Shown piece after piece: positions 13,036 to 38,887 of a stretch of DNA of 64,000 nt. The position numbers were made by a program, and so were the translations under genes. The stretch's first letter is position 1. Every line of letters begins with the position of its first letter. The DNA comes from an uncultured Actinomycetota bacterium (GTDB taxonomy: Bacteria; Actinomycetota; Actinomycetes; Mycobacteriales; SCTD01): NCBI GenBank assembly GCA_963844295.1, contig CAWJNR010000004.1, positions 281,306 to 345,305 on the forward strand, given 5' to 3'. The notes under the pieces were generated by a model that was not told the origin of the DNA, did no database searches, and worked only from the letters and a program-made list of their open reading frames with translations.

Positions 13036-14664
13036 ATGCTCCGCCCCATGCCTGAGGACACGATGTTCAGCCCCGAGACCGCCGCCGCCATCGCCCGCGC
13101 GCGGCAGCACTCCGTCGGCGACCTGCTCCGCCGCACCGCCCTGCGCTACCCCGACAAGCTCGCGGTCGTCGACGGCGAGCGGCGGATGAGCTTCGCCGAG
13201 CTCGACGCCGCGGTGAACCGGACCGCCGCCGCGCTCGCCTCCCGCGGTCTGGTCAAGGGGGACCGGCTGGCGCTGCTGTCGCACAACTGCTGGCAGTTCG
13301 CGGTCCTGGCCTTCGCCACCGCCAAGCTCGGCGTGGTCCTCGTACCGGTGAACTTCATGCTCGGAGCGGAGGAGATCGCCTTCATCCTCGAGCACTCCGG
13401 TGCGGCGGGCATGGTCGCCGAGGACGCGCTGGCTCCCACCGCGGCCAGGGCGCTGGCCGCCGCAGGTCGCACCGACGGCGTGCGCGGCTGGATCGGGCTG
13501 TCCGGCGCGTCGCCCGACCCCGGCTGGGAGGACGTCGCCGGCTGGGCGGAAGAGGGCGACGCGAGCGAGCCGGACGTCCTCATCGGCGACGACGACCCGC
13601 TGCGCCTGATGTACACCTCCGGCACGGAGTCGCGGCCCAAGGGCGTGATGCTGTCCAGCCGGTCGCTGGTCGCGCAGTACGTCAGCTGCGTCGTCGACGG
13701 CGGCATGAGCGTCGACGACGTCGAGGTCCACGCGCTGCCGATGTACCACTGCGCGCAGCTGGACTGCTTCTTCAGCGTCGACGTCTACCTGGGCGCGACC
13801 AGCGTCATCCTGCCCGCGCCCGACCCGGTCGTGCTGCTCGAGACGGTCGAGCGGGAGAGGGTCACCAAGCTGTTCTGCCCGCCCACGGTGTGGATCTCGC
13901 TGCTGCGCTGCCCGGACTTCGAGACCCGCGACCTGTCCTCGCTGCGCAAGGGCTACTACGGCGCCTCGGCGATGCCGGTCGAGGTGCTGCGCGAGCTGCA
14001 GCGCCGCCTGCCGGACGTGCAGCTGTGGAACTTCTACGGCCAGACCGAGATGGCGCCGCTGGCCACGATCCTGCGGCCGCACGAGCAGCTCCCGCACGCG
14101 GGCTCAGCCGGGCGCGCGTCCATCAACGTGGAGACGCGCTGCGTCGACGACGACGACGAGCAGGTGCCGCCCGGCGAGGTCGGCGAGATCGTCCACCGCA
14201 GCCCGCACGCGGCGCTCGGCTACTACCGCGACGAGGAGAAGACCGCGGCGGCCTTCCGCAACGGCTGGTTCCACTCCGGCGACCTCGGCGTCATGACCGA
14301 GGAGGGCTACCTCTCGGTCGTCGACCGCAAGAAGGACATGATCAAGACCGGCGGGGAGAACGTCGCGAGCCGCGAGGTCGAGGAGATGATCTACCAGCTC
14401 GAGGGGGTCGCCGAGGTCGCCGTCTTCGGGATCCAGCACCCGCACTGGATCGAGGCGGTGACGGCCGTCGTCGTCCCGAAGCCGGGCGTCGAGCTGGACG
14501 TCGAGCAGGTGAAGGCGCACGCCCGGGAGCACCTGGCGGGCTACAAGCGCCCGAAGTTCGTGGTCCTCGCCGACAGCCTGCCGAAGAACCCCAGCGGCAA
14601 GATCCTCAAGCGGGAGCTGCGGCAGCGGCACGCGGACCTGGCGGCCGGCGACCGGTCGGCCTGA
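13036..14664 (+). CDS. AMP-dependent acyl-CoA synthetase/ligase
   Basis: AMP-binding signature LMYTSGTESRPKGV, GWFHSGDLG, and DRKKDMIKTGGENV. 542-aa intact ORF. Confidence 0.9.
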   Translation: MLRPMPEDTMFSPETAAAIARARQHSVGDLLRRTALRYPDKLAVVDGERRMSFAELDAAVNRTAAALASRGLVKGDRLALLSHNCWQFAVLAFATAKLGVVLVPVNFMLGAEEIAFILEHSGAAGMVAEDALAPTAARALAAAGRTDGVRGWIGLSGASPDPGWEDVAGWAEEGDASEPDVLIGDDDPLRLMYTSGTESRPKGVMLSSRSLVAQYVSCVVDGGMSVDDVEVHALPMYHCAQLDCFFSVDVYLGATSVILPAPDPVVLLETVERERVTKLFCPPTVWISLLRCPDFETRDLSSLRKGYYGASAMPVEVLRELQRRLPDVQLWNFYGQTEMAPLATILRPHEQLPHAGSAGRASINVETRCVDDDDEQVPPGEVGEIVHRSPHAALGYYRDEEKTAAAFRNGWFHSGDLGVMTEEGYLSVVDRKKDMIKTGGENVASREVEEMIYQLEGVAEVAVFGIQHPHWIEAVTAVVVPKPGVELDVEQVKAHAREHLAGYKRPKFVVLADSLPKNPSGKILKRELRQRHADLAAGDRSA

Positions 14665-14768
14665 GCCGGGGCTCGTGACACGAGGCCCTTGGCGGCGCAC
14701 GATCAGGACTGCCGCCGCGCCGACCACCTGCGACCGTCCGGCCACGGGGCGCGGCCTGGGAGCCCGTC

Positions 14769-15404
14769 ATGAGCACTGACGACAGGGACCTGTCCTCGCT
14801 GGCCGCTCGCGCGCACGAGCACGTCGTGACAGCGCTCGAGGAGCCCGAGCAGCAGGGGCCGGCCGGCGTCGCCTGGTGCTCGGCCCACCTCGGCGCCGTC
14901 GACGCGGTGCTCCACGCGGAGGCCCACCGACGGGTGCCGCAGGCGCGGGACCGGCTGCGGGCCGCGCGGGATGCCGACCGGGTGCTGCAGCACGCGCTCG
15001 GCCGCCTCGACCGGCGGCTGACCGGGGACACCCACCTCGACCACGTCCCGGTCGAGCGGGTCGTCGGGGAGGTCCTGTCGGCCCTCGACGCCCATGCGCG
15101 CACCGAGGAGCGGCTGCTCGAACCGCTGGTCGCAGCGCTGTCCGTGGAGGAACGCGGCGAGCTCGCGGAGCGGCTCGAGGCGGCGACCGTCGACGCCCCG
15201 ACCCGGCCGCACCCGCACGTCCCGCACACGCCGTTCACCCCCGCGGTCGAGCGGCTCGAGGCCGCGGTCGACCGGGTGCGCGACGCCCTGGACAACCGGG
15301 TCGGCGCGACCGGCCGCCCGCTGCCTGCGCCGCGCCCGCTCGGGAGGTGGGGGAGCTACCTCACCGGCTCGCCGTGGCCGGACCGGGAGGTCCGGCGCCG
15401 CTGA
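14769..15404 (+). CDS. hypothetical protein, possibly hemerythrin-like (HHE) domain
   Basis: Intact 211-aa ORF with high GC3. Helical repeats with His/Glu pairs (HLGAVDAVLHAEAH, HARTEERLLEPL) and a PTRPHPHVPH tail. The family assignment is by eye only. Confidence 0.5.
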   Translation: MSTDDRDLSSLAARAHEHVVTALEEPEQQGPAGVAWCSAHLGAVDAVLHAEAHRRVPQARDRLRAARDADRVLQHALGRLDRRLTGDTHLDHVPVERVVGEVLSALDAHARTEERLLEPLVAALSVEERGELAERLEAATVDAPTRPHPHVPHTPFTPAVERLEAAVDRVRDALDNRVGATGRPLPAPRPLGRWGSYLTGSPWPDREVRRR

Positions 15405-15591
15405 CCGGCCCCTGCCGACCCGCGGCTGGTTCAGGAGCTGCGGGAGGCCGGTTCGTCTCCGCCGGCCACGCGGTCGGACGTCCGGACCCCCACCGACGAC
15501 TGCGCGCTGCCGGACGCGGCCCCGCCTGGCGGGCGCCCGACGGACCGGGCCCGCTGCTCCCCGCCCGCCGACGACCTCGTGCGCCCCTTCC

Positions 15592-16677
15592 TCACGGGGC
15601 TGTGAGGAAGAACGGCACGCCCGCCCTCAGGCACAGCTCCCGGAGCTGGGTGACCAGCGGCCCGGGCAGCGGGATGCCGCCGGCGGCGCGTTCCAGCCGT
15701 GATCGCGTCTCGGGATCTCCTGCCACCAGGACCGGCAGATCGGGGTCGGTGGGCGCGGTGGCGTGGAGCTCGTCCAGCAGCTCGGCGACGTCGCCCTCGA
15801 AGCCGCCGTCCTCGCGGAACGTCGCTGGGTCCAGGGCGAGGAAGAAGTGCCCGATGTCCGACGACCCTCCCGGACTCGCTCCCGCGCCGGACAGGGTCGC
15901 GGACAGGATCTGGACCATGACGCCGAGCCCGTAGCCCTTGTGGCTCGCCAGATCGGCGGTGGCGCCGAGCGGTGTCAGGCCGCCGCGGCCAGGACTCCGG
16001 ATCACCGTCATGGCCTCGTGGGGGTCAGTGACCGGGTCGCCGTCCGGGCCGACGACCCAGCCGACCGGCAGCTGCTCCTCGACGTACCCCCGCACCTTGA
16101 TCTTGTTGATGGCCGTGGTGCTGGTCGACATGTCGAGCAGGAACGGAGGGTGTCGCCCCGCCGGCGCCGCGAACGCGAGCGGGTTGGTGGACAGCCGCGG
16201 CTCGGCCCCCCTGGTGGGCAGCACCGAGATCGTGCGTGCCGTGGTGGTGACGAGCGCGACCAGCCCGCGGGCCGCGGCCAGGCCCGCGTAGTAGCCGGTC
16301 GCGCCGAAGTGCGACGAGCCGCGCACCGACACCGCTCCGAGTCCGTGCGCGAGGGCCTTGTCTCCTGCGAGCGTCATCGCCCGCACGGCGGTGGGGTGCC
16401 CGAGCCCTCCGCGAGCGTCGAGGACGGCACTGACCGCCGTCTCGCGGAGGACGACGGGCAGCGCCGTGAGCCGGAGCTCTCCGCGAGCGTGCAGCTGCTC
16501 GTACGTCGGCAGCATGGACACGCCGTGCGAGTCGATGCCGGCCAGGTCGGCGTCGGTGATGGCACGGGCGGCGGTGTCCGCGTCGTCGTGCCGCATCCCC
16601 CAGGCGCGCAGCACCTCTCGCACCTGCTGCTCGACGACGTCCGAGTCCACCAGGACGGGGCGGTCAGCCGTGCTCAC
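15592..16677 (-). CDS. Ldh_2 family (malate/L-lactate/ureidoglycolate-type) oxidoreductase
   Basis: GTG at 16677. GIDSHGVSMLPTY, SSHFGATGYYA, NPLAFAAP and SHKGYGLG motifs of the Ldh_2 family. The start overlaps the stop of the upstream gene by 4 nt. Confidence 0.85.
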   Translation of the reverse strand: MSTADRPVLVDSDVVEQQVREVLRAWGMRHDDADTAARAITDADLAGIDSHGVSMLPTYEQLHARGELRLTALPVVLRETAVSAVLDARGGLGHPTAVRAMTLAGDKALAHGLGAVSVRGSSHFGATGYYAGLAAARGLVALVTTTARTISVLPTRGAEPRLSTNPLAFAAPAGRHPPFLLDMSTSTTAINKIKVRGYVEEQLPVGWVVGPDGDPVTDPHEAMTVIRSPGRGGLTPLGATADLASHKGYGLGVMVQILSATLSGAGASPGGSSDIGHFFLALDPATFREDGGFEGDVAELLDELHATAPTDPDLPVLVAGDPETRSRLERAAGGIPLPGPLVTQLRELCLRAGVPFFLTAP

Positions 16678-17426
16678 CGGCGGTGGTCGAGCAGGCGCTG
16701 CAGCCGGTCCTGGGTGTCGGCGCTGGCGAGGCAGACCGCCTGAGCCGCTGCGTCGACGAGCCGGTGGCGGTCGCCCTGCACGCGCATGGCTTCTTTCGCC
16801 AGCCGCTGGGCCAGGCTCGATCCCTCGGCGAGGTCGCCGAGCAGGTCGGCCAGCGCGTCGTCCAGCTCGTCCGTCTCGACACAGCGCGAGACCAGGCCGG
16901 TGGTGGCCGCCTGCGCGCCGGTCATGCGTCGCCCGGTCAGCACGAGGTCGGTCGCCAGGCCGGTCCCGACGAGCTGAGCGAGGCGCACCAGGGCGCCCGC
17001 GCTGGGGACGATCCCGAGGCGCACCTCGGGCAGACCCCAGAGGGCTGTCGTCGAAGTGATGCGGAAGTCGCACGCGAGTGCGAGCTCGCACCCGCCGCCG
17101 AGCGCCGCACCGTCCACCACGGCGACGGTCGGCCACGGGTGGTCGTGCAGGCGCTGGAAGAGGGTGCCGTTGAGCCGCGACAGCGAGTCGTCCGTGGAGC
17201 GGGCGCGCAGCTGCGCCACATCGCTCCCCGCCACGAACATGCCCGGCGCGCGACTGCGGACGACCACCGGCAGCGGTGTGGCCGCGTGCTCCTCGAGCGC
17301 TGAGGACAGGGCCCGACTCAGGTCGAGGTCGAGGGCGTTGCGCTTGTCCGGACGGTCGAGCAGCAGCGTCACCGCGTGCGGGCCCACGTCGACCTGGAGG
17401 ACCGCACGGGCAGGGCTTGGGGACAT
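16674..17426 (-). CDS. enoyl-CoA hydratase/isomerase (crotonase) family protein
   Basis: LLLDRPDKRNAL, VAVVDGAALGGGCELALACDFRI and GLPEVRLGIVPSAG (oxyanion hole). ATG at 17426; a TATACA box ends about 9 nt upstream, so the transcript may be leaderless. Confidence 0.85.
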   Translation of the reverse strand: MSPSPARAVLQVDVGPHAVTLLLDRPDKRNALDLDLSRALSSALEEHAATPLPVVVRSRAPGMFVAGSDVAQLRARSTDDSLSRLNGTLFQRLHDHPWPTVAVVDGAALGGGCELALACDFRITSTTALWGLPEVRLGIVPSAGALVRLAQLVGTGLATDLVLTGRRMTGAQAATTGLVSRCVETDELDDALADLLGDLAEGSSLAQRLAKEAMRVQGDRHRLVDAAAQAVCLASADTQDRLQRLLDHRR

Positions 17427-17503
17427 GCCGACACTGTATAGAATGTCAGGTTCCCGGGGGAGCACCCTTGGCCACCCTGCCCGAACGAGGAGCGTGCACC
17501 CCA

Positions 17504-17740: not shown

Positions 17741-17764
17741 GCGCTGCTCGCGGAGCTCGAGGAG

Positions 17765-18421
17765 TCAGAGGTGCTCACGCAGGCGGGCGGCGTTCATGAT
17801 GTGCTGGCGGGCGCGTTCGCCGGCCAGCTGCGCGTCCCTGGACCGCAGCGCCTCGAGGATCCCCTCGTGGTCGGCGGTCAGCTCACGGGCCGCGTCGTGG
17901 TCGCGCCAGATCGTCACGCGGGGCGGGAAGAGCGTCCACAGGCTCGAGGCGTGCGAGGCGATCAGCTCTGAGCCTGCGTGGTAGATGGTGAAGTGCAGTC
18001 GGCGGTTGAGCACAGCGAGGTCCTGTCCGCCGGCGTCGACGCTGACCTGCAGGTCGCGGTGCACGGCCTCGACAGCGGCGAGGTCAACGTCCGTCATCCG
18101 CTCGACGGCGACGGACGTCGCCAGGCCCTCGATCTCCGCGCGCAGGAGGTAGACGTCCTGGACGCGTTCCGGCGACAGCTCGCGCACCGTGGCTCCGCGG
18201 TGCGGCGCGTAGCTGATGGTCCCACCTGCCTCGAGCAGCCGGAGGGCCTCCCGGACGGGGGTGGCGCTGACGCCGTAGCGGGCGGCGATGCCGCTCTGGC
18301 GCAGCGAGCTTCCCGGCACCACGACGCCGCTCGCGATGTCCTCGCGCAGCCGCTGCAGGACGTACTCGGTCTTGCTCAGCGGTGGCGAAGGGGGCTCAGC
18401 AGGGGCCGGGGCCTTCGTCAC
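17765..18421 (-). CDS. GntR family transcriptional regulator (FadR/FCD subfamily)
   Basis: Winged HTH LRQSGIAARYGVSATPVREALRLLEAGG followed by a helical FCD-type domain. Divergent from the PrpD-family gene at 18577. Confidence 0.85.
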   Translation of the reverse strand: MTKAPAPAEPPSPPLSKTEYVLQRLREDIASGVVVPGSSLRQSGIAARYGVSATPVREALRLLEAGGTISYAPHRGATVRELSPERVQDVYLLRAEIEGLATSVAVERMTDVDLAAVEAVHRDLQVSVDAGGQDLAVLNRRLHFTIYHAGSELIASHASSLWTLFPPRVTIWRDHDAARELTADHEGILEALRSRDAQLAGERARQHIMNAARLREHL

Positions 18422-18576
18422 GGTCGGACCTCCTGCTCAGCTGGCTCCGGCGAGGCAGCAGCCGAACCCTAGACCGGGACCACCCGACCCGGAAGTCGAC
18501 ATGATATAGGTTGCCGACGCAAGTCCGGCCGGAGCCCGCGGGGCTCGCCGCCACCACCCACGTCAAGAGGGGCCCC

Positions 18577-19914
18577 ATGACCGACCCCGTCGCCCGCGAC
18601 CTCGCGGACTTCTCCCTGTCCTGTGCCGCGGCGGAGCCTGCTGCCCTGCACGAGGCCGCCCGGCGCCTGCTCGACGTGTACAGCCTGTCCGCCGCGTCCG
18701 GCCAGGACGGGCCGGTGCGGATCGCGAAGGGGCTGTCCGAGCCCCGCCAGGGCTCGGACGGCGTCACGGTCTGGTTCGAGCCGGGCCGCTACGAGCTGGC
18801 CGGGGCGGTCTTGGCCAACTGCGTCGCGACCCGGTACCGCGACATGAACGACTCCTACTTCAACCGGGAGTCCCTGCACCCGAGCGACATGGTCCCCGCC
18901 CTGTGCGGCGTGGCCGAGCAGGCGGGCGCCACCGTCGGACAGCTGCTGGACGCCGCATGCGTGGCCTACGACGTCGCGGTCGACATGGCCGACACCTGGC
19001 GCACCTCGGCCCGCGGTGCAGATCACGTCAACCTGATCCGCTTCGGCACCGTGGCAGGTGCCGGCCGCCTGCTGGGCCTGTCCGAGGAGCGGCTCACCCA
19101 GGCCTTCGCCATCGCCGCCACCACCCAGATCGCCACTCGGCAGACCCGGCGCGGTGACCTGACGATGTGGAAGGGCTACGCCGCCGGCGACAGCGCCGTC
19201 GGGGGACTGCGCGCGGTGCGCATGGCAGCTGCCGGTGTCGACGGCCCGACGCTGTCCTTCGTCGGCGACATGGGGTTCCAGGCCGTCGCCGTCGACGAGG
19301 CGACGCGGGTCGAGCGGTGGACTCCCACGACCGGAGGCCGTCGCGTCCTCGACACCCACCTGAAGGTCCACCCGGTGGGCTACCTGTCGCAGGCGCCCGC
19401 AGAGGTCGCCATCGCGCTGCACGGCCGCCTCGGCGGCGCCACGGTCGTCAGCGCCCAGGTCACCACGTACCGCCGCGCCAAGGAGATCATGGCCGACCCG
19501 GAGAAGTGGCACCCCCGCTCGCAGGAGACGGCAGACCACTCGCTGCCCTACATCGTCACCGTCTGCCTGCTGGACGGCCGCGTGGGGACGGACTCCATGC
19601 ACGAGTCGCGCTTCAGCGCACCTGACGTGTCCAGGCTCCTGCCGGAGGTGGAGGTCGTCGTCGACGAGGAGATGACGGCGGCCTACCCGCAGGAGATGGC
19701 CGTGCGCATCGAGGTGGTCACGAGCTCGGGAGAGCACCTCGAGGCCGCCGTGCCCTGGCCGCTGGGCCACGCCCGGCGACCCCTGACGGACGACCAGCTG
19801 CTCACCCGTTCGTCGGAGCTGCTGGCGGCGGCCCTCGGAGACGCGGCTCCCACCACCGCCGCCCGGCTGCTCCACCCTGATCTCGACCGCCCGGTCGGGG
19901 ACCTCTGGACCTAG
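18577..19914 (+). CDS. MmgE/PrpD family protein (paralogue 1)
   Basis: ATG at 18577 after AAGAGGGG. Roughly 445 aa with PrpD-like core (HPSDMVPALCGVAE, YLSQAPAEVAIAL, ADHSLPYIV). Confidence 0.85.
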   Translation: MTDPVARDLADFSLSCAAAEPAALHEAARRLLDVYSLSAASGQDGPVRIAKGLSEPRQGSDGVTVWFEPGRYELAGAVLANCVATRYRDMNDSYFNRESLHPSDMVPALCGVAEQAGATVGQLLDAACVAYDVAVDMADTWRTSARGADHVNLIRFGTVAGAGRLLGLSEERLTQAFAIAATTQIATRQTRRGDLTMWKGYAAGDSAVGGLRAVRMAAAGVDGPTLSFVGDMGFQAVAVDEATRVERWTPTTGGRRVLDTHLKVHPVGYLSQAPAEVAIALHGRLGGATVVSAQVTTYRRAKEIMADPEKWHPRSQETADHSLPYIVTVCLLDGRVGTDSMHESRFSAPDVSRLLPEVEVVVDEEMTAAYPQEMAVRIEVVTSSGEHLEAAVPWPLGHARRPLTDDQLLTRSSELLAAALGDAAPTTAARLLHPDLDRPVGDLWT

Positions 19915-19926
19915 GACAGGAACCCC

Positions 19927-21316: not shown

Positions 21317-21322
21317 GGGATC

Positions 21323-21353
21323 CCCGCACGGACGTGACCCACGTCCGTGCGGG
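21323..21353 (+). terminator. perfect 14-bp stem / 3-nt loop hairpin downstream of PrpD paralogue 2
   Basis: CCCGCACGGACGTG-ACC-CACGTCCGTGCGGG read directly. It begins 7 nt after the stop codon and has no U-tract. Confidence 0.6.
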
Positions 21354-21451
21354 TAGTCACAGCCGCTGCGAGGAATCGGGCCGTCGGCCGGGGCGCTCAT
21401 CACGACGACGGGTTCGTCCGTCGACCTGACGCCTCGAAGGAGCACTGCCGC

Positions 21452-21646: not shown

Positions 21647-21663
21647 CACCGGCGGACCGACCG

Positions 21664-23855: not shown

Positions 23856-23902
23856 CGTGGAAGGCCCTTCCGTCACGTGGATCCACGCTAGCATCGCTGG
23901 CC

Positions 23903-24934: not shown

Positions 24935-25006
24935 ACTTCACCTAGACGCTCGCGTACGCGTTGCATACAGTGCGCATGCACTGTTGCCGCGAGCCTGGAG
25001 GACCCG

Positions 25007-26489: not shown

Positions 26490-26516
26490 TCGGACGGGTC
26501 GGGAGCCGGGCCGGCC

Positions 26517-27872
26517 TCAGCCGGGGCGGCCGGCACGGACCACCTGCGCGAAGTCGGGCACGTCGTCCACCGTCCAGCAGGTCTGGAGCAGCTGCTCCGC
26601 CTGCGCGGCCCCGAGCACCGGACCAGCCAGGTCGAGGAACTTCTCGCCGATCTCGGCGTCGGTCAGCGGGTTGCCGGGGGTCCCCTTGTTGTGGGCCACG
26701 CTGTGCACGAGCCGACGGCCATCGGCCAGGGTGATCTGGACGCGGGTCGCGTCCTTGTCCATCGAGGGGTCGGTGGTGATGCGCACCAGGTCGCGCACGG
26801 CGGCGACCTCCGGCGCAGCCACGCGGCTGTCGGTGAACTGCTCCAGACCGGCCCGCCCGTCGACCAGTGCGACAGCCGCGCCGTGGAAGATGCTGAACTT
26901 GCCGTCCAGCCCGGACCGCAGGTCCCGCTTGGCCGTCACCCACGAGACGTAGTCGTGGACCCGGGCGTCGATCTCCACGACGTCCGCGACCTCGAAGCCC
27001 TCTGAGTCCCGCAGCGCGAGCACCGCCTCGATGGTGGGGTGGATGAGCGAGCCGCAGGCGTAGAACTTGAAGCCGTTGTCGGGCAGGGTCCAGCGGCTGC
27101 CCAGCTCGTCTGTCACCTCCTCGAGGCGGGGGGCGTCCGACATGACGGCCAGCAGCCCGCGCTTGCCCTCCACGATCGTCGTGGTGGAGGTGAAGCCGCG
27201 TCGCGCGAGGAGCGCGGACAGCATGCCGTCGGTCGCGGCCTTGCCCGGGTGCAAGGGCTTGCCCATGGACCCGTAGACCTCCTTGAGGCCGGCCGCCTGC
27301 GTCCCGGCCGTGCCCAGCGCGACCGACGTCGCCTCCGGGGACAGACGGAGCAGACTGGCTGCTGCGGCCGCCGCACCGAGGTGCCCCACGGTGCCGGTGA
27401 CGTGCCACCCCCGGCCGTAGTGGCTCGGCCCGGCGGCTCGGGCGACCCGGACCTCGGTCTCGAAGCCGACGACGAAGGCGGCGAGGGCGTCCGCTCCGGT
27501 CGTCGTGCCGAGCTCGCTCAGCGCCGCGACGACGGGCCAGACCGGTGCGCTGCCGTGCACGGTCGTCTCGCCCGGGTTGTAGGTGTCGTCGTAGTCCTCG
27601 ACGTGCGCCGAGTAGCCGTTGACGAGGGCCGCGAACAACGGGGTCACGGTCTCGTGCCGGCCGAGCACCGTCGCGGTGCCGGTGCCACCGGCCTCGCCCG
27701 CGACCTCGAGCAGGGCGTCCACGCCGGGGTCGCCCGAGCCGTTGATGGCGACTCCGAGCCAGTCGATGAGGCAGCGCCGCGCCTGCGCGACCACATGGGG
27801 CGGTACCTCGCTGAGGATGAGGCGGCTGGCGAAGTCGGCGAGCGCGGCGGTCGCGCCGGCGGGAGTGGACAT
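26517..27872 (-). CDS. MmgE/PrpD family protein (paralogue 4)
   Basis: ATG at 27872 (MSTPAGATAALADF). HVEDYDDTYNPGETTVHGSAPVWPVVAALSE, GWHVTGTVG, PLHPGKAATDG and KFYACGSLIHP. 451 aa. Confidence 0.9.
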   Translation of the reverse strand: MSTPAGATAALADFASRLILSEVPPHVVAQARRCLIDWLGVAINGSGDPGVDALLEVAGEAGGTGTATVLGRHETVTPLFAALVNGYSAHVEDYDDTYNPGETTVHGSAPVWPVVAALSELGTTTGADALAAFVVGFETEVRVARAAGPSHYGRGWHVTGTVGHLGAAAAAASLLRLSPEATSVALGTAGTQAAGLKEVYGSMGKPLHPGKAATDGMLSALLARRGFTSTTTIVEGKRGLLAVMSDAPRLEEVTDELGSRWTLPDNGFKFYACGSLIHPTIEAVLALRDSEGFEVADVVEIDARVHDYVSWVTAKRDLRSGLDGKFSIFHGAAVALVDGRAGLEQFTDSRVAAPEVAAVRDLVRITTDPSMDKDATRVQITLADGRRLVHSVAHNKGTPGNPLTDAEIGEKFLDLAGPVLGAAQAEQLLQTCWTVDDVPDFAQVVRAGRPG

Positions 27873-28047
27873 GCGGGCTCCTCGGAAGCGTTGAGGTGGG
27901 GGAGGGCTCCGGTCGTCGGGCCGATGACCGGGTGGAGGGCGAGGGCGGGGCCAGGCGGCAGAGGCCGTCCGCAAGAGGGGGAGATGCGATCGGGCGACGG
28001 ACACGAGGTCCGCCGCCCGATCACTCCCGCTACGTGCCGGGGAGCGT

Positions 28048-28785
28048 CTAGGACATCAGCTCTCCGCCGTTGGCGCCGATGCTCTGGCCGGTGACGTAGC
28101 CGCCGGCGTCCGAGGAGAGGAAGCCCACGACGCTGGCCACGTCCTCCGGTCGCCCGAAGCGGCCGAGGGCGCCGATCCCCTTCCGCTCCTCCTGCCGACT
28201 GCGGGTCGGCCTCGTCAAGCGCTCGGTCAGCACCGTCCCGGGGCAGACGATGTTGACGGTGATCCCGTCGCGCCCGAACTCGTTCGCGAGGGAGCGGGTC
28301 AGGCCGACCAGGGCGTGCTTGGCCGAGGCCGAGGTGGCCCTCTCGGCCACCCCCAGCGTGGCGCGCACGCCCGTCATGCAGATGATCCGACCCCAGCCGC
28401 GCTCGCGCATCCCGGGGATCAACGCGCGGCAGAGCAGGTAGGGAGCCTCCACCGTGATGGCGTGCACCGACCGCCACTCCTCGAGGTCGACCTCGAGGAA
28501 CGGTCGGTGCGGACGGCTGGCCGCGTTGTTGACCAGCACGTCCACCCGGCCCACCTCGGCCGCCAGCCGGCGGACCTCATCGGCGTCGGTGAGGTCCGCG
28601 AGCAGCACGCGGGCGTCGGTCCCCAGGGCTCGGACCTGCTGCGCGACGTCCTCGGCCGCCTCCGCGTCGCGCCGGGTGTGGACGACGACGTCCATGCCGA
28701 GGCGGGCGAGCTCGAGAGCCGTGGCGCGGCCGATGTTGCGGGCCGCCCCCGTGACGAGGGCGACCCGACGGTCCGCGGCGGTCAC
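28048..28785 (-). CDS. SDR family oxidoreductase (FabG-like fold, atypical active site)
   Basis: Rossmann motif TGAARNIG and NNAA. The position normally occupied by Y-x-x-x-K reads S-A-S-A-K (ERATSASAKHALVGLTRSLA). Its start overlaps the tctC stop by 4 nt. Confidence 0.8.
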   Translation of the reverse strand: MTAADRRVALVTGAARNIGRATALELARLGMDVVVHTRRDAEAAEDVAQQVRALGTDARVLLADLTDADEVRRLAAEVGRVDVLVNNAASRPHRPFLEVDLEEWRSVHAITVEAPYLLCRALIPGMRERGWGRIICMTGVRATLGVAERATSASAKHALVGLTRSLANEFGRDGITVNIVCPGTVLTERLTRPTRSRQEERKGIGALGRFGRPEDVASVVGFLSSDAGGYVTGQSIGANGGELMS

Positions 28786-29822
28786 TCGTTCACGAGCTGG
28801 CCGGTCTCCCGGAAGAGGGTGATGTGCTCCTCCTCCTGCTCGGCCAGGTGGGCGCCGTACTCGTCACCGACCAGGAAGTTGGGGACAGCGGCGGACCGCT
28901 CGATGAACTCCTTGTAGGACTCCGTCTCGGTCAGCTGGCGCAGCAGGTCGGCGTAGTACTCGATGGCCTCGTCGGACATGCCGGGAGGCCCGACCACGCC
29001 GCGGGTCTGCGCCGGCGGGATGTCCTCGAAGCCGAGCTCCACCGTGGTGGGGGTGTCCGGGAACAGGTCGACCCGATCGTCACCGATGATGGCGACGGGG
29101 ATCATCTCGCCGGCCTCGACGTTCTCCAGCATGTCGCTGGGCTCGGTCATGTACAGCGCCGCGTCCCCGCGGAGCAGGGCGGTCTTGCGCTCGCCGCCGC
29201 CCGGGAACGACAGGAACTGCCAGTCGGCGCCCGACTCGCGCTGGAGGAACTCGCCCGACAGCGCGTCGGTCGCGGTGTTCGACCCGCCGGACTGGACGAG
29301 CGCGCCCGGCTGCTCCTTGGCCGCCTCGATGAAGTCCTCGAGGGTCTTGTACGGGCCGTCGGCGGCGACGGCCACGGCCATGGAGTCGTCGTAGAGCGAC
29401 GCGATGGGGGTGAACGTGTCGAGGCCGACGTCGACGCCCTCGGTCACGAGGCGGTTGACGGTGTAGACGTTGCTGGCGAAGGCGATCATGTCGTTGCGCC
29501 CCTCCTGCTCCTGCAGGTAGGACAGGGCCACCGCGCTGCCGCCGCCGTCGCGGTTGTCGACGGTCCAAGCGCCGGGCTCGATGATCTCCTCCTCCTCCAT
29601 GAGGGCGATGATCTCGCGGGCCAGGAGGTCGGCGCCGCCGCCCGGCGCCGTGTGGACGACGACGTCGGTCTGGTCCGGCGGGCTGAAGCTGCTGCCGCTG
29701 TCGCCGTCGGCCGTGTCCTCGCTGCCGTCGTCACTGCCGCCGCACGCGGCGACCGTGGTCATCAGGGCGAGCGCCGTGCCGACGATGGCGGTGCGGTGTC
29801 GAAGGGCGTGTGATCTGCGCAT
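28782..29822 (-). CDS. tctC: tripartite tricarboxylate transporter substrate-binding protein (Bug/TctC family), lipoprotein
   Basis: Signal peptide with lipobox VAACGG. Bug-family fold cues (PGGGADLLAREI, VQSGGSNTATDALSGEFL, VGPPGMSDEAIEYY). Confidence 0.85.
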   Translation of the reverse strand: MRRSHALRHRTAIVGTALALMTTVAACGGSDDGSEDTADGDSGSSFSPPDQTDVVVHTAPGGGADLLAREIIALMEEEEIIEPGAWTVDNRDGGGSAVALSYLQEQEGRNDMIAFASNVYTVNRLVTEGVDVGLDTFTPIASLYDDSMAVAVAADGPYKTLEDFIEAAKEQPGALVQSGGSNTATDALSGEFLQRESGADWQFLSFPGGGERKTALLRGDAALYMTEPSDMLENVEAGEMIPVAIIGDDRVDLFPDTPTTVELGFEDIPPAQTRGVVGPPGMSDEAIEYYADLLRQLTETESYKEFIERSAAVPNFLVGDEYGAHLAEQEEEHITLFRETGQLVNE

Positions 29823-29870
29823 GTCAGTCTCCTTGTCGCGCGTGCATGTGCCGTGCAGGTGTGCGAGCGG

Positions 29871-31385
29871 TCAGTCCTCCTCCTCGAGCACCTTCTTCCT
29901 GAACGTGTCCGTCTTGCCGAACAGCGTGGAGCCGAGCATCAGCACGGCCATGGCCAGGAGCACCAGCGCGATCGGCCGCTCCAGGAAGATCCCGCCGTCA
30001 CCGTTGGAGATGACGAGGGACTGCGTGAGGGCGCGCTCGGCCAGCGAGCCGAGGACGAACGCCAGGAGCAGCGGCGCGGGTGGCAGGTCGACCTTGCGCA
30101 TGATGTAGCCGACGACCGCGAAGGCCAGGAACAGCCAGAGGTCGTAGACGCTGCCGCTGAGGCTGTACACGCCCACGATGCAGACCACGAGGATGCCCGG
30201 GTACAGGTAGACGTACGGGATGCGCAGGATGCTGGCGAACAGCGGGACCAGCGGCAGGTTGAGGACGACGCACATCAGGTTCCCGATGTACATGCTGGCG
30301 ATGATCGCCCAGACCAGGTCGGGCTGTTCGGTGAAGAGCTGGGGCCCGGGGCGGAAGCCGTAGATGATGAGGGCGGCGAGCATGACGGCGGTCGCGGCCG
30401 ACCCCGGGATGCCCAGGGTCAGCAGGGGCACCATGGCACCGCCGGTCTCGCTGTTGTTGGCGCCCTCGGGGGCCGCGACGCCGTCCATGGCGCCCTTGCC
30501 GAAGTCCTCCGGGCGCTTGGAGATGCGCTTCTGGACGCCGTAGGAGATGAAGGAGGCGATCGTGGCGCCGGCGCCGGGGAGCACGCCGATGAAGAACCCG
30601 ATCACCGAGCTCTGTGCGAACGCCGTCCGGCAGTACTTGATGTCGGCCCAGGTGGGCAGCAGCTCGCGGAGCTTGCGCGGCACCGGGAACATCGTGGTGC
30701 TCGCTGTGTTCTCGACGTTGCTGAGGACCTCGGCCACGGCGAAGACGCCGATCGCGACGATGATGAAGTCGATGCCGTCCAGCAGCTCGATCTGCCCGAA
30801 GACGAAGCGCGACTGACCCGAGACGATGTCGGCGCCGACGGTCGCGAGCAGCAGGCCCAGCGCCGTCGACAGGATGCCCTTCAGCACGGAGTCACCGGCG
30901 AGCAGCAGGATCGTCGTGAGGCCGAACACCATCAGCGCGAAGAACTCGGGGGGCCCGAAGCTGACGGCGAAGTCCGCCACCACGGGGGCCAGGAACGTCA
31001 GCCCGATGACCCCGATGGTGCCCGCGACGAAGGACGAGATGGCGGCGATGCCCAGCGCCGCCCCGGCTCTGCCCTGCTTGGCCAGGGCGTAGCCGTCGAT
31101 CGTCGTCATGATCGACGCCGACTCGCCGGGGATGTTGAGCAGGATGGCGGTCGTCGACCCGCCGTACTTGGCGCCGTAGTAGAGGCCGGCCATCATGATC
31201 AGCGTGCCCTCCGGCGGCAGGCCGAAGGTGATGGGCAGGAGGATGGCCAGGGTCGCGGACGGGCCGAGGCCGGGCAGGACGCCGACGACCGTCCCCAGGG
31301 TCACGCCGATCAGCGCCAGCAGCAGGTTCATCGGCGTGAGCGCCGTCGCGAACCCGCCGGCCAGGCTGTTCAGTGAGTCGAGCAT
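29871..31385 (-). CDS. tctA: tripartite tricarboxylate transporter permease, large subunit
   Basis: 504-aa polytopic membrane ORF. GVLPGLGPSATLAILLP, YYGAKYGGSTTAILLNIPGE and GVLPGAGATIASF are typical of TctA. Confidence 0.9.
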   Translation of the reverse strand: MLDSLNSLAGGFATALTPMNLLLALIGVTLGTVVGVLPGLGPSATLAILLPITFGLPPEGTLIMMAGLYYGAKYGGSTTAILLNIPGESASIMTTIDGYALAKQGRAGAALGIAAISSFVAGTIGVIGLTFLAPVVADFAVSFGPPEFFALMVFGLTTILLLAGDSVLKGILSTALGLLLATVGADIVSGQSRFVFGQIELLDGIDFIIVAIGVFAVAEVLSNVENTASTTMFPVPRKLRELLPTWADIKYCRTAFAQSSVIGFFIGVLPGAGATIASFISYGVQKRISKRPEDFGKGAMDGVAAPEGANNSETGGAMVPLLTLGIPGSAATAVMLAALIIYGFRPGPQLFTEQPDLVWAIIASMYIGNLMCVVLNLPLVPLFASILRIPYVYLYPGILVVCIVGVYSLSGSVYDLWLFLAFAVVGYIMRKVDLPPAPLLLAFVLGSLAERALTQSLVISNGDGGIFLERPIALVLLAMAVLMLGSTLFGKTDTFRKKVLEEED

Positions 31386-31433
31386 GCAGGTGCTCCCAAC
31401 GCTTCGTCCCGCCGCCGCAGCGCCGGTGCCGAA

Positions 31434-31886
31434 CTAGAAGTAGAGGACGCCAGGAGGCAGGCGGACGCCGAGGAGCACCGCGAACAACGTCCAGAACACG
31501 ATGGGCACGAGGGCGACGACCAGGAACGCCGTCGGCGTGAACTTCCGCTCGATGCCGAACATGATCCCGGCCATCAGCAGGAGCATGGAGACGATGAAGC
31601 CCAGGGACTCCATCACCCCGATGACGACCGCCATCAGCACGAAGGCGCCGACGACGCGCAGGGTGCCGTTGCGGTCGAGAGCCTCGAAGTGGCCCTGCGA
31701 AGGGTTCACGAACTGCTTGATCGCGAGGATGGCGCCCGTGACGATGAAGATGATCGCCAGCCCGCGCGGCAGGAAGCCGGGGCCGGGGGAGTTGCGGGTG
31801 AAGACCGCGAGCTCCTGGCCGGCGAGGATGACGCCGATGCCGAGGGCGACGAAGAAGATCCCGACGCCGAGGTCGATGCGCTTCAC
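31434..31886 (-). CDS. tctB: tripartite tricarboxylate transporter small membrane subunit
   Basis: GTG at 31886. 150 aa with four TM helices (VKRIDLGVGIFFVALGIGVILAG...GPGFLPRGLAIIFIVTG). Located immediately upstream of tctA. Confidence 0.8.
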   Translation of the reverse strand: MKRIDLGVGIFFVALGIGVILAGQELAVFTRNSPGPGFLPRGLAIIFIVTGAILAIKQFVNPSQGHFEALDRNGTLRVVGAFVLMAVVIGVMESLGFIVSMLLLMAGIMFGIERKFTPTAFLVVALVPIVFWTLFAVLLGVRLPPGVLYF

Positions 31887-33235
31887 CGCTGCACCACCAC
31901 GCAGGCGCGCAGCAGCGGAGCCACGCTGTCCGCCTCCGGCAGGCCCCGGACCTGGTCCACGACCGCGCTCGCGCCGTCGGCTCCGAGCAGGGGAGTGGTG
32001 AGCAGGACGAACTTGTGCTCCACCTCGGCCGCGGTCATCCGGCGCTCGCGGGTGCCGCGGGCCTTGGTCCTCGCGCTGAGCCGGGTGCCGTCGTTCAGCA
32101 CGACCACCACCTCGGCCTCGTCCCGCGGCGTGTCGTCGAGGGAGGTGCCGGTGATGCGAGAGCGGAGGTCGACCACGTCGGTGCGTCCGACCCAGTCGTC
32201 CTCGAAGTGCGCGGGCAGGAGCGAGCCGGTCAGCAGCGCCGTGGCCGTGGCGTGGAAGACGCTGAACTTGGACTGCAGTCCGTCGCTGGGGGCCGCGTTG
32301 CCGGTGATGCTCAGCGCCAGCGGGTTGACGAGGAGCTCGACGGTGGCGATGTCGGCCGCCCGGACCCCCTGGTCCAGAAGGGCCAGGGCGGCGTCGACCG
32401 CGGGGTGGATGACGACACCGCACGGGTACGGCTTGGGGTCCCAGTCGAGCATCCGGAGCCGGTCGCCCAGGTCGTCGGCCAGTCCCGGGGCCTCGGGCGC
32501 TCCGTGGGTGAGGAAGTAGCCGTCCCCCGGCTGCTCGAGGATCGTCGTGGAGGACGTGAGACCGCGGCGGGCGGCGACGGCGGCCAGGACGCCGTTCTGC
32601 GCCGCGTGGGCCGGGTTCATGGCCTTGGTCATCGTCCCCCGGTGACCGCGCAGCCCGCTCGAGAGGGTGCTCGCGATGCCGAGCGCGAAGGTCGTCTGGT
32701 CCGGCGTGAGGCCCATGAGCCGGGCGGCGGCCATGGCCGCGCCCATCGCTCCGGCCGTGCCGGTCAGGTGCCACCCGTGCGCCTGCTGCGCGCCGGCGGC
32801 GATGGCCACGCGAGACGTGACCTCGAGCCCGACGGCGTGGGCCGTCAGCAGCTGGAGCCCGCTGGCCCCCTCGTGCTCGGCCACGGCCAGCGCGGCCGCC
32901 GTGACCGGGGCGTTGACGTGGACGATCGCGTCGAAGTGCGTGTCGTCGAAGTCGAGCACGTGGGAGACGTAGGCGTTGTGCAGGGCGGCGAGAGCCGTGC
33001 TGGTGCGCTCGGTGCTGCCGAGCAGGGTCGCCTGGGGACGGCCCGCGAGGTCCTCGACGACGCCCGCCATCCGGCGGCTCGCGTCGTGGTCGAGCCCGGC
33101 CAGGCCGACGCCGACGGTGTCCAGGATCCCCTGTGCCGACTTGGTCAACGCCTCGGCGGGGAGCCCGTCGGACGACACGGTCGAGGACCACTCCGCCAGG
33201 CGGCGGGTGGGCGCGATGCAGTTGGCCGGCGGCAC
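31883..33235 (-). CDS. MmgE/PrpD family protein (paralogue 5), first gene of the tctBAC-SDR operon
   Basis: HVLDFDDTHFDAIVHVNAPVTAAALAVAE, GWHLTGTAG, AMNPAHAAQNG and KPYPCGVVIHP. Its stop overlaps the tctB start by 4 nt. Confidence 0.9.
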   Translation of the reverse strand: MPPANCIAPTRRLAEWSSTVSSDGLPAEALTKSAQGILDTVGVGLAGLDHDASRRMAGVVEDLAGRPQATLLGSTERTSTALAALHNAYVSHVLDFDDTHFDAIVHVNAPVTAAALAVAEHEGASGLQLLTAHAVGLEVTSRVAIAAGAQQAHGWHLTGTAGAMGAAMAAARLMGLTPDQTTFALGIASTLSSGLRGHRGTMTKAMNPAHAAQNGVLAAVAARRGLTSSTTILEQPGDGYFLTHGAPEAPGLADDLGDRLRMLDWDPKPYPCGVVIHPAVDAALALLDQGVRAADIATVELLVNPLALSITGNAAPSDGLQSKFSVFHATATALLTGSLLPAHFEDDWVGRTDVVDLRSRITGTSLDDTPRDEAEVVVVLNDGTRLSARTKARGTRERRMTAAEVEHKFVLLTTPLLGADGASAVVDQVRGLPEADSVAPLLRACVVVQR

Positions 33236-33255
33236 GTGACCCTCCTCACTCTAAA

Positions 33256-33279
33256 TTCGATAAGATATATGGGTTCGAA
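33256..33279. promoter_or_regulatory. AT-rich box with TTCGA/TCGAA inverted arms in the divergent PrpD5 / GntR intergenic region
   Basis: TTCGATAAGATATATGGGTTCGAA is the lowest-GC spot for kilobases. It shares GATATA(T)GG(G)TT with the box at 18503-18512 in the other GntR/PrpD divergent region. Confidence 0.4.
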
Positions 33280-33432
33280 CGGTGTGGCAATCACCACGTC
33301 ATGCGACCGAGCCGCCCGCCGACGCTGGGGGCGCCCGGGCCGGCCGTGCGACGTGCATCTTGCATGCAATGTGGTCCAAAGGCTAGCGCCTACGTGAGGT
33401 GAGTCACGTGTCCCCCGCTGTACGGTCGTCCG

Positions 33433-34194
33433 ATGGCGGTCGGAAGGGGCGAGAAGGTCGGGGAAGGAAGCCGCTCGGTGTCGGACGCTCGGCCGGCCAA
33501 CGCGTCCGGGCTGCCGGTGCAGGAGCTGCGCCAGTACTACGGGGCTGACGGCCACGAGCGCGGGCGCACGACAGAGGCCGTGTCGGAGGCGCTGCGCGAG
33601 GCGATCATGGATGGCGTCCTGGCTCCGTCGGCATGGTTGCGCGAGGACGAGCTGGCGGCCGCCTTCCAGGTCAGCCGGACCCCGGTGCGCGAGGCCCTGC
33701 GCCGCTTGTCGGACGAGGGCCTGGCGGTCAAGACGGCGCACCACGGGACCGTCGTCGCTCCGCTGAGCCTCGAGGACATCCTGGCGCTCTACGTGGTGCG
33801 GGAGGACCTGGAAGGACTAGCGGCCCGCCTGGCGGCGGGTCGGCGGACCCCAGGGCTCATCGGGTCGCTGCAGGAGGTGCACGAGCAGATGATCGCCTCC
33901 GCCGAGCGGGGCGACGTCACCCTCATGGCCCGGCAGAACCTCGCCTTCCACCGCGTGCTGCGCGAGGCAGCGGGCAACCCCTACCTCGAGCGCTTCCTCA
34001 CGCAGGTCGAGCACGCGGTGCGTCGTGTCCCGTCGACCTTCACCCAGACGGGTCGCCCGGACACCGTGCTGGCCGAGCACGCCGCGGTGATCGAGGCGCT
34101 CGCGGCCGGCGACCCGGAAGGTGCCGAGCGCGCCGCGCGCCAGCACATGCGTCGTGCTCGCGAGGTGCGGCTGCAGTTCCTGCTCGGCTCGTGA
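33433..34194 (+). CDS. GntR family transcriptional regulator (FCD subfamily)
   Basis: LREDELAAAFQVSRTPVREALRRLSDEGL HTH plus an FCD domain (NLAFHRVLREAAGNPYL). The start is uncertain and could be downstream of 33433. Confidence 0.85.
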   Translation: MAVGRGEKVGEGSRSVSDARPANASGLPVQELRQYYGADGHERGRTTEAVSEALREAIMDGVLAPSAWLREDELAAAFQVSRTPVREALRRLSDEGLAVKTAHHGTVVAPLSLEDILALYVVREDLEGLAARLAAGRRTPGLIGSLQEVHEQMIASAERGDVTLMARQNLAFHRVLREAAGNPYLERFLTQVEHAVRRVPSTFTQTGRPDTVLAEHAAVIEALAAGDPEGAERAARQHMRRAREVRLQFLLGS

Positions 34195-38869: not shown

Positions 38870-38887
38870 GAACAGCGCGGAACGATG

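Follow-up and report, generated by a model that had tools for sequence, protein, structure and literature searches.

The question raised by this locus is what five MmgE/PrpD-family genes do side by side in one actinomycete. We analysed a stretch of 64,000 nucleotides (nt) from an uncultured Actinomycetota bacterium (GTDB lineage Actinomycetes; Mycobacteriales; SCTD01; GenBank assembly GCA_963844295.1, contig CAWJNR010000004.1, positions 281,306 to 345,305), hereafter called the window, whose own coordinates are used throughout. A previous sequence-only reading had described positions 13036-34194 as a 21-kb catabolic island with five PrpD paralogues (here PrpD1 to PrpD5), a TcuA-like flavoprotein and a TctCBA transporter under three regulators. 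In a published GTDB search, 50,344 MmgE/PrpD homologues were found in 21,713 of 113,104 genomes, and 19.2% of the genomes had at least one (PMC12290011). Five family members within 15 kb are therefore not a matter of chance. The locus is a genuine, conserved and uncharacterised organic-acid cluster, and we see about an even chance that it takes up substituted succinate-, malate- or citrate-type acids and converts them in several steps.

All five paralogues matched PF03972 (N-terminal domain) and PF19305 (C-terminal domain) above the gathering score, with the halves of PrpD2 joined at position 20371. Their pairwise identity was 23-40%, whereas each had its own orthologue in related contigs with 60-89% identity; the paralogues therefore represent old, separately maintained functions. 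PrpD1 orthologues (73-81%) were found in L004 and L086, and PrpD4 orthologues (76-78%) in L001 and L004 (L-numbers denote related loci; L001 and L086 lie on one 54-kb contig, the closest relative of the window). PrpD3 had orthologues in the closest relative (88-89%) and in Mycobacterium, Mycolicibacterium and Streptosporangiales (60-64%), and PrpD5 orthologues (61-75%) always headed the same operon. Orthologues of PrpD2 occurred in actinobacterial contigs (66-85%) and in more than 100 Burkholderiales clusters (72-75%). So high an identity between phyla may reflect either strong constraint or horizontal transfer.

Judging by profile scores, none of the paralogues is a canonical 2-methylcitrate dehydratase, because the best score against the NCBIfam PrpD equivalogs (NF042438, TIGR02330, NF006943) was 147 bits for PrpD1, compared with a cut-off of 950 bits for the PrpD equivalog of high-GC Gram-positives. 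PrpD2-5 scored 25-50 bits. On this point the sequence-only reading was supported. Four activities are known in the family, namely 2-methylcitrate dehydratase, cis-aconitate decarboxylase (CAD), iminodisuccinate (IDS) epimerase and methylsuccinate isomerase, and most members are called uncharacterised (PMC12290011). Comparison of the active sites separated PrpD1, which was of the true-PrpD type, from PrpD2-5, which had residues of the CAD/IDS-epimerase type. In CAD, IDS epimerase and methylsuccinate isomerase, the 1,4-dicarboxylate backbone is bound by a set of His, Glu/Asp, His, His, Lys and Lys (PMC12290011). This set was found in PrpD2-5 in a MAFFT alignment, and its His/His/Lys/Lys part combined with the motif H-x2-[DE]-x-D-D-[ST]-[HY] to give the CAD/IDS-epimerase-type signature. 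PrpD1 had the true-PrpD signature R..D.ND[ST][WY]...HPSD when aligned to the solved PrpDs 6s62 and 1szq. As in true PrpDs, it had Arg and Asn at two of the dicarboxylate-binding positions and kept the HPS histidine. A loss of the catalytic histidine from PrpD1, as read from a MAFFT column, was rejected, since that column proved to be one residue off and the HPS histidine was evident once PrpD1 was aligned with true PrpDs and CAD in HMMER. The nearest solved structures were true PrpDs for PrpD1 (1e-17), and the B. subtilis 'IRG1' homologue and IDS epimerase for PrpD4 and PrpD5 (1e-34 to 1e-47). Solved CADs matched the paralogues at only 1e-8 to 1e-29 and were never the best match, and a close relationship to fungal or mammalian CAD was thus not seen.

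The co-localisation of the five genes was borne out and recurred in relatives. Wherever a related locus was long enough for a verdict, the paralogues stood together and were not scattered. The gene order in the closest relative was MFS-GntR2-PrpD5-TctBAC-SDR-(AbrB pair)-PrpD4-flavoprotein-AbrB pair-IclR-PrpD3-orfY-PrpD2-PrpD1, followed past PrpD1 by genes for an acyl-CoA dehydrogenase (ACAD) and two UGSC proteins, GntR1, another crotonase, DUF6282, 2-Hacid_dh and a sixth PrpD. The arrangement PrpD5-TctB-TctA-TctC-SDR-(AbrB pair)-PrpD was common to three metagenomic lineages independent of each other (L001/L086/L096, L004/L005 and L002/L003), in which a GntR/FCD regulator, more PrpD genes and a FAD_binding_2 flavoprotein were also present. 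A scan of JGI metagenomes with PrpD5 gave only one close locus. In a profile search of genome contigs with an alignment of PrpD5 orthologues, the matches listed had at most 42% identity, which is paralogue level.

Synteny with the closest relative was limited to approximately 17765-35632, and this stretch is therefore the conserved block. To its left, the genes for acyl-CoA synthetase, orfX, Ldh_2 and crotonase were replaced in the closest relative by ACAD, UGSC, the other crotonase, DUF6282 and 2-Hacid_dh, so that a crotonase and a 2-hydroxy-acid dehydrogenase of an unrelated family were found at the equivalent place. An acyl-CoA synthetase gene beside the core was absent from L086, L002 and L004. 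The four genes are a variable, lineage-specific module. At the other end, the MFS transporter probably belongs to the conserved block, because it was kept (75% identity) beside GntR2 in the closest relatives. Within the block, orfY was 56% identical to its counterpart in the closest relative, which had the same position between PrpD2 and PrpD3 (L086 11415-11609). The window lacked the AbrB gene pair that relatives have between SDR and PrpD4, and had a 175-nt spacer with a hairpin (27988-28022) instead.

The term 'island' did not hold. The G+C content was 0.69-0.75 inside the cluster, 0.74-0.79 to its left and 0.67-0.72 to its right, with no sharp step. No tRNA gene was found in the window and no mobility gene at the cluster edges, and the flanks consisted of ordinary chromosomal genes. 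A horizontally acquired island was rejected on these grounds of composition, tRNA and flanking genes, and the syntenic stretch differed from the proposed 21 kb. Further right, positions 36000-50000 combined lower G+C (0.67-0.72) with a weak coding signal in the G+C of third codon positions (GC3) and few open reading frames (ORFs) with Pfam matches; an ORF with an HTH_17 (excisionase-like) domain lay at 38973-39464. This part, rather than the PrpD cluster, could be foreign or poorly assembled.

Beyond these metagenomic lineages, related clusters with 3-6 PrpD genes each were found in Mycolicibacterium, Streptosporangiales and Burkholderiales and on a Pacificitalea plasmid. The cultured Mycolicibacterium agri had three PrpD genes in the pattern PrpD / PrpD3-type / SDR-PrpD-TctC-TctA-TctB / IclR, which recurred in at least 10 further Mycobacterium or Actinomycetota loci. 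A Streptosporangiales metagenome-assembled genome (MAG) had only SDR-PrpD beside a PrpD3-type gene. L087 had five PrpD genes, SDR and the tripartite tricarboxylate transporter (TTT) as well as AbrB in fused form, a dehydrogenase of the Iso_dh family and a gene of the PEP_mutase/ICL family. Five MmgE/PrpD genes were also present on plasmid pDY25-A of the cultured alphaproteobacterium Pacificitalea manganoxidans DY25 (NZ_CP021405.1 41378-60571; L094), together with TctABC, SDR, an FCD regulator and a member of the AbrB family; the plasmid further encodes a 'tartrate dehydrogenase' and a second protein of the Iso_dh family. This plasmid is a ready experimental model. Burkholderiales MAGs (L091 7228-16421; L092 5817-17416) showed the order PrpDx-SDR-PrpD2-ACAD-(ADP-forming) CoA ligase-PrpDy-family-III CoA transferase-(TctC)-PEP_mutase/ICL-like, in a conserved operon that adjoined purEKC and whose PrpD2 was 73-75% identical to the actinobacterial one. 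The chromid of Cupriavidus campinensis had TctC-PrpDx-2-Hacid_dh-PrpD2-like.

The smallest recurrent unit in these loci is a PrpD3/4/5-type gene, an NAD-type dehydrogenase and a PrpD2-type gene, usually with TTT components. The dehydrogenase slot was filled by unrelated families across lineages (SDR, 2-Hacid_dh, Iso_dh and Ldh_2), and the step is therefore probably the oxidation of a free 2- or 3-hydroxy-acid.

Uptake was represented by a complete TTT, with TctA, TctB and TctC adjacent on the minus strand. The N-terminus of TctC, MRRSHALRHRTAIVGTALALMTTVAAC, resembles a lipoprotein-type signal peptide (…ALMTTVAAC|GG), the putative lipobox having been read by eye. TctA was 92% identical to its counterpart in L001. 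TctC/Bug proteins bind many different carboxylates. The two half-size AbrB-type proteins, of which the first had approximately four hydrophobic segments, were membrane proteins by hydropathy and form a putative second transporter. The window and its close relatives had them as two overlapping halves, whereas a fused AbrB of approximately 369 amino acids (aa) was found in L087 (12942-14051) and on the Pacificitalea plasmid (L094 14326-15444). The NCBI label 'transcriptional regulator' for the AbrB-family protein seems ill suited to a polytopic membrane protein.

From these parts a working model can be drawn. TctC would bind an acid with a succinate-like backbone outside the cell and TctBA would import it; the acid would be a substituted 1,4-dicarboxylate, namely a succinate-, malate- or citrate-type di- or tricarboxylate, probably in several stereo- or regio-isomers. 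The PrpD-family enzymes would then dehydrate, rehydrate, epimerise or decarboxylate it via an enolate, the mechanism proposed for the whole MmgE/PrpD family (PMC12290011). In the triad of one PrpD, an NAD-type dehydrogenase and a PrpD2-type enzyme, a hydroxy-acid would be isomerised and then oxidised. Saturated congeners may enter through desaturation by the flavoprotein, in the way that TcuA handles tricarballylate, and Ldh_2, crotonase and acyl-CoA synthetase may be a lineage-specific add-on for products at the hydroxy-acid or CoA level. With the acid present, the regulators would lift repression of the operons. Five paralogues would be explained most simply by several stereo- or regio-isomers, or by consecutive hydro-lyase steps. 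The branched-chain or tricarboxylate substrate and the control of the locus by two GntR and one IclR regulators, both proposed in the sequence-only reading, are inferred from gene adjacency. A bolder extension is that clusters of several PrpD genes with a TTT and a dehydrogenase, here and in Mycolicibacterium, Burkholderiales, Cupriavidus and the Pacificitalea plasmid, form a widespread, unrecognised route, in which PrpD pairs act on substituted malates, citrates or succinates as an aconitase-like isomerase (dehydratase/hydratase) or epimerase independent of Fe-S clusters and are followed by an NAD-dependent hydroxy-acid dehydrogenase; we regard this as tentative, with a low probability.

Several points weigh against an organic-acid cluster of this kind. 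All proposed enzyme roles derive from family membership. With PDB E-values of 1e-17 to 1e-47, the five paralogues are far from every characterised member, and sequence does not reveal which type of reaction they catalyse. The window contained no lyase or thiolase with which a pathway could end. Accessory genes differed among relatives, and lineages may use the core for different acids. A common control element was also sought: TATACAGTG or CATACAGTG occurred at 17432-17440 and 24964-24972, just upstream of the crotonase and flavoprotein genes. As a shared promoter motif of these genes, TATACAGTG was rejected (two copies found compared with 0.97 expected; 27 of 100 shuffles reached two). The flavoprotein, after correction of its reading frame, failed the TcuA model TIGR02485 (252 bits, cut-off 372.55). 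Its nearest solved relatives were soluble fumarate reductases (Fcc3, 6e-30), but R402, H504 and R545 of Fcc3 aligned with Tyr, Thr/Phe and Tyr. With these dicarboxylate residues not conserved and TIGR02485 failed, succinyl desaturation is therefore without active-site support, and a succinyl substrate bound by fumarate-reductase-type residues was dropped from consideration. The flavoprotein was also absent from the mycobacterial and proteobacterial cluster versions, and therefore lies outside the minimal system. Finally, this copy of the cluster would be without PrpD2 and the flavoprotein if the frame breaks in both genes were real.

These breaks lead to one alternative, that the locus is decaying, with PrpD2 and the flavoprotein lost and the cluster partly non-functional. 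Both genes are broken in the sequence as it stands. In PrpD2, one extra base at 20371 shifted the frame from 0 to +1, in which the Pfam N-terminal domain ran on; tblastn with the L004 and L002 orthologues ended residue 148 at 20370 and started residue 149 at 20372, and this contiguous alignment means that exactly one base is extra. The ORF previously given for this gene (19927-21429) was thus correct for its first approximately 148 codons, and the remainder was not PrpD2, which continues in the +1 frame. In the flavoprotein, one extra base at 25244 placed the GxGxxG N-terminus (MTTTPDGEHADVIVVGGGNAAF...) and the remainder in different frames. The best match of repaired PrpD2 was 90%, with none at 100%, whereas PrpD5 and PrpD3 each had one 100% match; the break is therefore present in the deposited assembly. 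When JGI metagenomes were scanned by pattern, neither version of the 25244 site was found. Against decay, each gene had a single extra base and no other lesion, GC3 stayed above 0.9 past both breaks, and identity to intact orthologues was 80-85% on either side. At least two more genes were frame-split at 1-1405, which is typical of indel-prone assemblies. There, on the plus strand, a patatin-like phospholipase domain and a DUF6912 domain were each split, and the seven-state frame hidden Markov model (HMM) gave six switches within 1.4 kb. Taken together, the splits at 1-1405 and the breaks at 20371 and 25244 suggest an indel-prone assembly. Because the orthologue alignments were contiguous, GC3 was high and other genes in the window were also frame-split, the two breaks are probably assembly errors rather than pseudogene lesions, and we consider a decaying locus unlikely.

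The flavoprotein is central to a second alternative, the use of tricarballylate or aconitate, in which the TTT would import the acid, the flavoprotein would make cis-aconitate and the PrpDs would be aconitate-type hydratases, isomerases or decarboxylases. The corrected protein passed NF006130 (TcuA) with 530 bits (cut-off 369), and the TctCBA transporter, a gene for PrpF (aconitate-isomerase family) in L002 and an aconitase gene adjoining the Burkholderiales version agree with such a route. However, the protein fell short of TIGR02485, the original TcuA model, as given above. In the tcu system of Salmonella, TcuA is re-oxidised by TcuB, a membrane Fe-S protein, and no TcuB-like partner, that is no Fe-S or CCG-domain protein, was found among the cluster ORFs with Pfam. 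The label 'TcuA-like' was consequently only half sustained, by NF006130 and not by TIGR02485 or a TcuB partner. The flavoprotein was missing in the mycobacterial, Burkholderiales and Pacificitalea versions, and those of L002 and L004 were only 45-48% identical and at other positions. Moreover, cis-aconitate needs no more dedicated enzymes, and the five paralogues would be left unexplained. We therefore hold the tricarballylate route to be quite unlikely.

A similarly small chance was given to the degradation of a branched C5-dicarboxylate (methylsuccinate, itaconate or mesaconate-like), in which one or more PrpDs would epimerise alkylsuccinates and the synthetase, crotonase and dehydrogenase would carry out the CoA steps. 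One characterised enzyme of the MmgE/PrpD family, the (S)-(R)-methylsuccinate isomerase, is encoded beside an ACAD, and a methylsuccinyl-CoA dehydrogenase (ACAD) gene adjoins every identified isomerase gene (PMC12290011). The window itself showed no such adjacency, and no ACAD, family-III CoA transferase or citramalyl-CoA lyase was found in it with Pfam. The acyl-CoA synthetase and crotonase genes that are present were not conserved with the core. In a MAFFT alignment that is uncertain here (one residue off elsewhere), the column four residues before the second His, at the position of the isomerase's catalytic Tyr148, held R, R, D, G and A in PrpD1-5 and thus Tyr in none, while the histidine of its Tyr148/His102 pair was conserved. 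The published isomerases are, in addition, 96% from Pseudomonadota (PMC12290011). The Burkholderiales PrpD2 orthologues, in turn, lie directly beside ACAD, CoA ligase and family-III CoA transferase genes, and the PrpD2-PrpD1 pair abuts ACAD in the closest relative (L086). Since both adjoin ACAD, methylsuccinate isomerase is a live lead.

It is highly unlikely that unrelated small units (PrpD with a regulator, TTT with PrpD, a CoA module) merely lie next to one another where catabolic genes abound, as three regulators, at least five transcription units in both orientations, the left module replaced in the closest relative, accessory content that varies by lineage and the common occurrence of PrpD beside TctC/Bug genes in Betaproteobacteria might indicate, because the same paralogue types are linked across Actinomycetota, Alpha- and Betaproteobacteria despite changed gene order, and L004 keeps PrpD1, PrpD2, PrpD4 and the PrpD5 operon together and L001/L086 keeps all five paralogues.

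The features of the cluster are listed in the table. Every gene family named in the sequence-only reading was recovered with Pfam at or near its expected place.

Table. Features of the PrpD cluster and its borders in the window, with the evidence for each.
Feature	Position	Strand	Evidence and remarks
Acyl-CoA synthetase, AMP-binding	13036-14664	+	Pfam PF00501 and PF13193; NCBIfam NF006182 794 bits (cut-off 663)
orfX, 211 aa	14769-15404	+	Coding GC3 signal; no Pfam match
Ldh_2-family dehydrogenase (type-2 malate/L-lactate/sulfolactate)	15592-16677	-	PF02615, 7.8e-96; GTG overlaps crotonase stop by 4 nt
Crotonase (enoyl-CoA hydratase/isomerase)	16674-17426	-	PF00378, 2e-40
GntR/FCD regulator 1 (GntR1)	17765-18421	-	PF00392 and PF07729; divergent from PrpD1-PrpD2
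PrpD1	18577-19914	+	Pfam; ATG at 18577 with ribosome-binding site
PrpD2	19927-21316	+	Pfam N-domain split over two frames; extra base at 20371
Hairpin, perfect 14-nt stem, 3-nt loop	21323-21353	+	Repeat search; 7 nt past PrpD2 stop
orfY, 64 aa	21452-21646	+	Conserved position in closest relative; no family match
PrpD3	21664-23037	-	Both Pfam domains; ATG overlaps IclR stop by 4 nt
IclR-family regulator	23034-23894	-	PF09339 and PF01614; divergent from AbrB pair and flavoprotein
AbrB-family (PF05145) membrane protein, half-size, first	23903-24406	+	Covers profile positions 158-311 only
AbrB-family membrane protein, half-size, second	24403-24945	+	4-nt overlap with first half
FAD_binding_2 flavoprotein, TcuA-like in part	25007-26489	+	Pfam; extra base at 25244
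PrpD4	26517-27872	-	Pfam; probable start ATG at 27872, ribosome-binding site GAGGAG
Hairpin, 15-nt stem	27988-28022	-	Repeat search; between SDR stop and PrpD4 start
SDR dehydrogenase, FabG-like	28048-28785	-	Pfam; GTG overlaps TctC stop by 4 nt
TctC solute-binding protein	28782-29822	-	PF03401, 7.2e-23
TctA large permease subunit	29871-31385	-	PF01970, 2.4e-169
TctB small membrane subunit	31434-31886	-	PF07331, 8e-17; GTG overlaps PrpD5 stop by 4 nt
PrpD5	31883-33235	-	Pfam; first gene of PrpD5-TctB-TctA-TctC-SDR operon
GntR/FCD regulator 2 (GntR2)	33433-34194	+	Pfam; divergent from PrpD5 operon
MFS transporter	34274-35632	+	Adjoins GntR2

The gene map was drawn from a GC3 frame plot, the frame HMM and Pfam. 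Because the window has approximately 73% G+C, long open frames occur in each of its six phases and make a raw ORF list misleading; the ORFs 21664-25152 and 15592-17136, for example, were mostly spurious open frames of high-GC DNA. The cluster genes sit in tightly coupled operons. Start and stop codons overlapped by 4 nt (GTGA or ATGA) at PrpD5/TctB, TctC/SDR, crotonase/Ldh_2, IclR/PrpD3 and AbrB1/AbrB2, and the TctB-TctA and TctA-TctC gaps were approximately 48 nt each. The place of PrpD5 at the head of the transporter operon and its overlap with TctB, both part of the sequence-only reading, proved real. At least five transcription units in both orientations made up the cluster. The reported absence of prpB and prpC was also upheld, as Pfam scans found neither citrate-synthase (prpC) nor PEP_mutase/ICL (prpB) domains in the cluster ORFs or the other scanned ORFs of the window.

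In the left module, orfX had no predicted membrane segment by hydropathy, and the crotonase reached no NCBIfam equivalog cut-off. Ldh_2 was likewise under every such cut-off, its nearest solved structure being the type-2 malate dehydrogenase 1v9n (2.5e-48). The organism was placed by its nearest named relatives, Streptosporangiales and Mycobacterium (53-64%). An Amidohydro_3-family gene (10570-12999, plus strand) ended 37 nt ahead of the acyl-CoA synthetase on the same strand and may share an operon with it and orfX, a hint that the left module serves another pathway, perhaps one for amides. Further left, 6424-10776 (minus strand) encoded a 964-aa ATPase of the FtsK/SpoIIIE family that has two ATPase regions (EccC-like); an FHA-domain protein came next. 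The pair may be related to type VII secretion and had no connection to the PrpD cluster.

The regulators were conserved with the block, with orthologues of GntR1 in L086 (89% identity), of GntR2 in L001, L004 and L096 (77-78%) and of IclR in L001/L086 (75%). IclR is co-transcribed with PrpD3. The hairpin at 21323-21353 probably marks the end of the PrpD1-PrpD2 transcript, where it would act as a terminator. Candidate operators were the palindromes TTCGATAAGATATATGGGTTCGAA (33256-33279) and TTGCATGCAA (33360-33369) between PrpD5 and GntR2, a perfect palindrome ACAGTGC-GCAT-GCACTGT (24967-24984) that included part of the motif copy at 24964-24972, and an imperfect palindrome at 17430-17447. None of these four was shown to be significant.

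A solved function would reach beyond this locus. Three to six diverged paralogues with uptake and dehydrogenase genes were kept across three phylum- or class-level groups, which points to at least one unassigned multi-step organic-acid pathway. MmgE/PrpD proteins occur in approximately one fifth of sequenced prokaryotic species and have no more than four known activities (PMC12290011). Among them the PrpD2 type is particularly widespread, with 72-75% identity between the actinomycete and Burkholderiales. Cultured carriers (Mycolicibacterium agri, P. manganoxidans DY25 and C. campinensis) make the question directly testable. An answer would improve the annotation of thousands of genes mislabelled '2-methylcitrate dehydratase' and could yield oxygen-tolerant hydro-lyases or epimerases for dicarboxylate biotechnology. 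Were the Fe-S-independent route to prove true, the four characterised activities of the family would be joined by several new reaction specificities. The sequence-only reading had suspected an undescribed pathway, and in the papers found on PrpD with TctC, tricarballylate or tartrate, and on TcuA in Actinobacteria, no multi-PrpD/TTT cluster was described.

Comparison with known systems places the locus between several of them. It shares with the methylcitrate operon prpBCDE the fold and true-PrpD signature of PrpD1 (E. coli and Salmonella structures) and a nearby acyl-CoA synthetase gene, but it lacks prpB and prpC and has in addition a TTT importer, a flavoprotein, an SDR and four paralogues that belong to another subtype. 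The itaconate/methylsuccinate cluster ich-mcd-mmgE-ict-ccl of Pseudomonas and Cupriavidus (PMC12290011) has the dicarboxylate-binding His/Glu(Asp)/His/His/Lys/Lys set in common with the window, and is a catabolic cluster in which the substrate of the PrpD-family enzyme is a free substituted succinate and CoA-level enzymes are encoded alongside. Unlike it, the window has no ACAD, CoA transferase or citramalyl-CoA lyase, has five paralogues instead of one, adds a TTT importer, SDR, flavoprotein and AbrB-type proteins, and comes from an actinomycete host.

The tcuRABC locus of Salmonella likewise combines an organic-acid importer with a regulator, and one TcuA model is passed by the flavoprotein. 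The window differs in the failed TIGR02485 match, in having neither TcuB nor a TcuC-type MFS in the flavoprotein operon, and in its regulator families; PrpD-family genes are not known to be part of the Salmonella tcu locus. The TctCBA citrate transporter and Bug systems share all three adjacent components and a TctC with an export signal. In the window, however, the order is B-A-C, with translational coupling to a PrpD gene ahead of the three and an SDR gene behind them, and in place of an adjacent TctDE two-component regulator, which is absent, regulation would be by GntR/FCD proteins. IDS epimerase of Agrobacterium BY6 and the B. subtilis 'IRG1' homologue, which has no established activity (PMC12290011), are of the same signature type as PrpD4 and PrpD5 and are their nearest solved structures; the similarity is distant, and the cluster holds no C-N lyase partner.

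Aconitase with isocitrate dehydrogenase, and LeuCD with LeuB, would be parallels in working logic only, by way of the dehydration, rehydration and NAD-dependent oxidation proposed here, which is entirely inferred. L087 and pDY25-A carry Iso_dh-family (tartrate or isopropylmalate-type) dehydrogenases that would suit this logic, whereas the cluster has no aconitase-family or Fe-S hydro-lyase, and PrpD-family enzymes would take the hydro-lyase role. The cluster is thus not a methylcitrate operon, an itaconate/methylsuccinate cluster, a tcuRABC locus or a plain citrate TctCBA system, and it borrows parts or logic from each.

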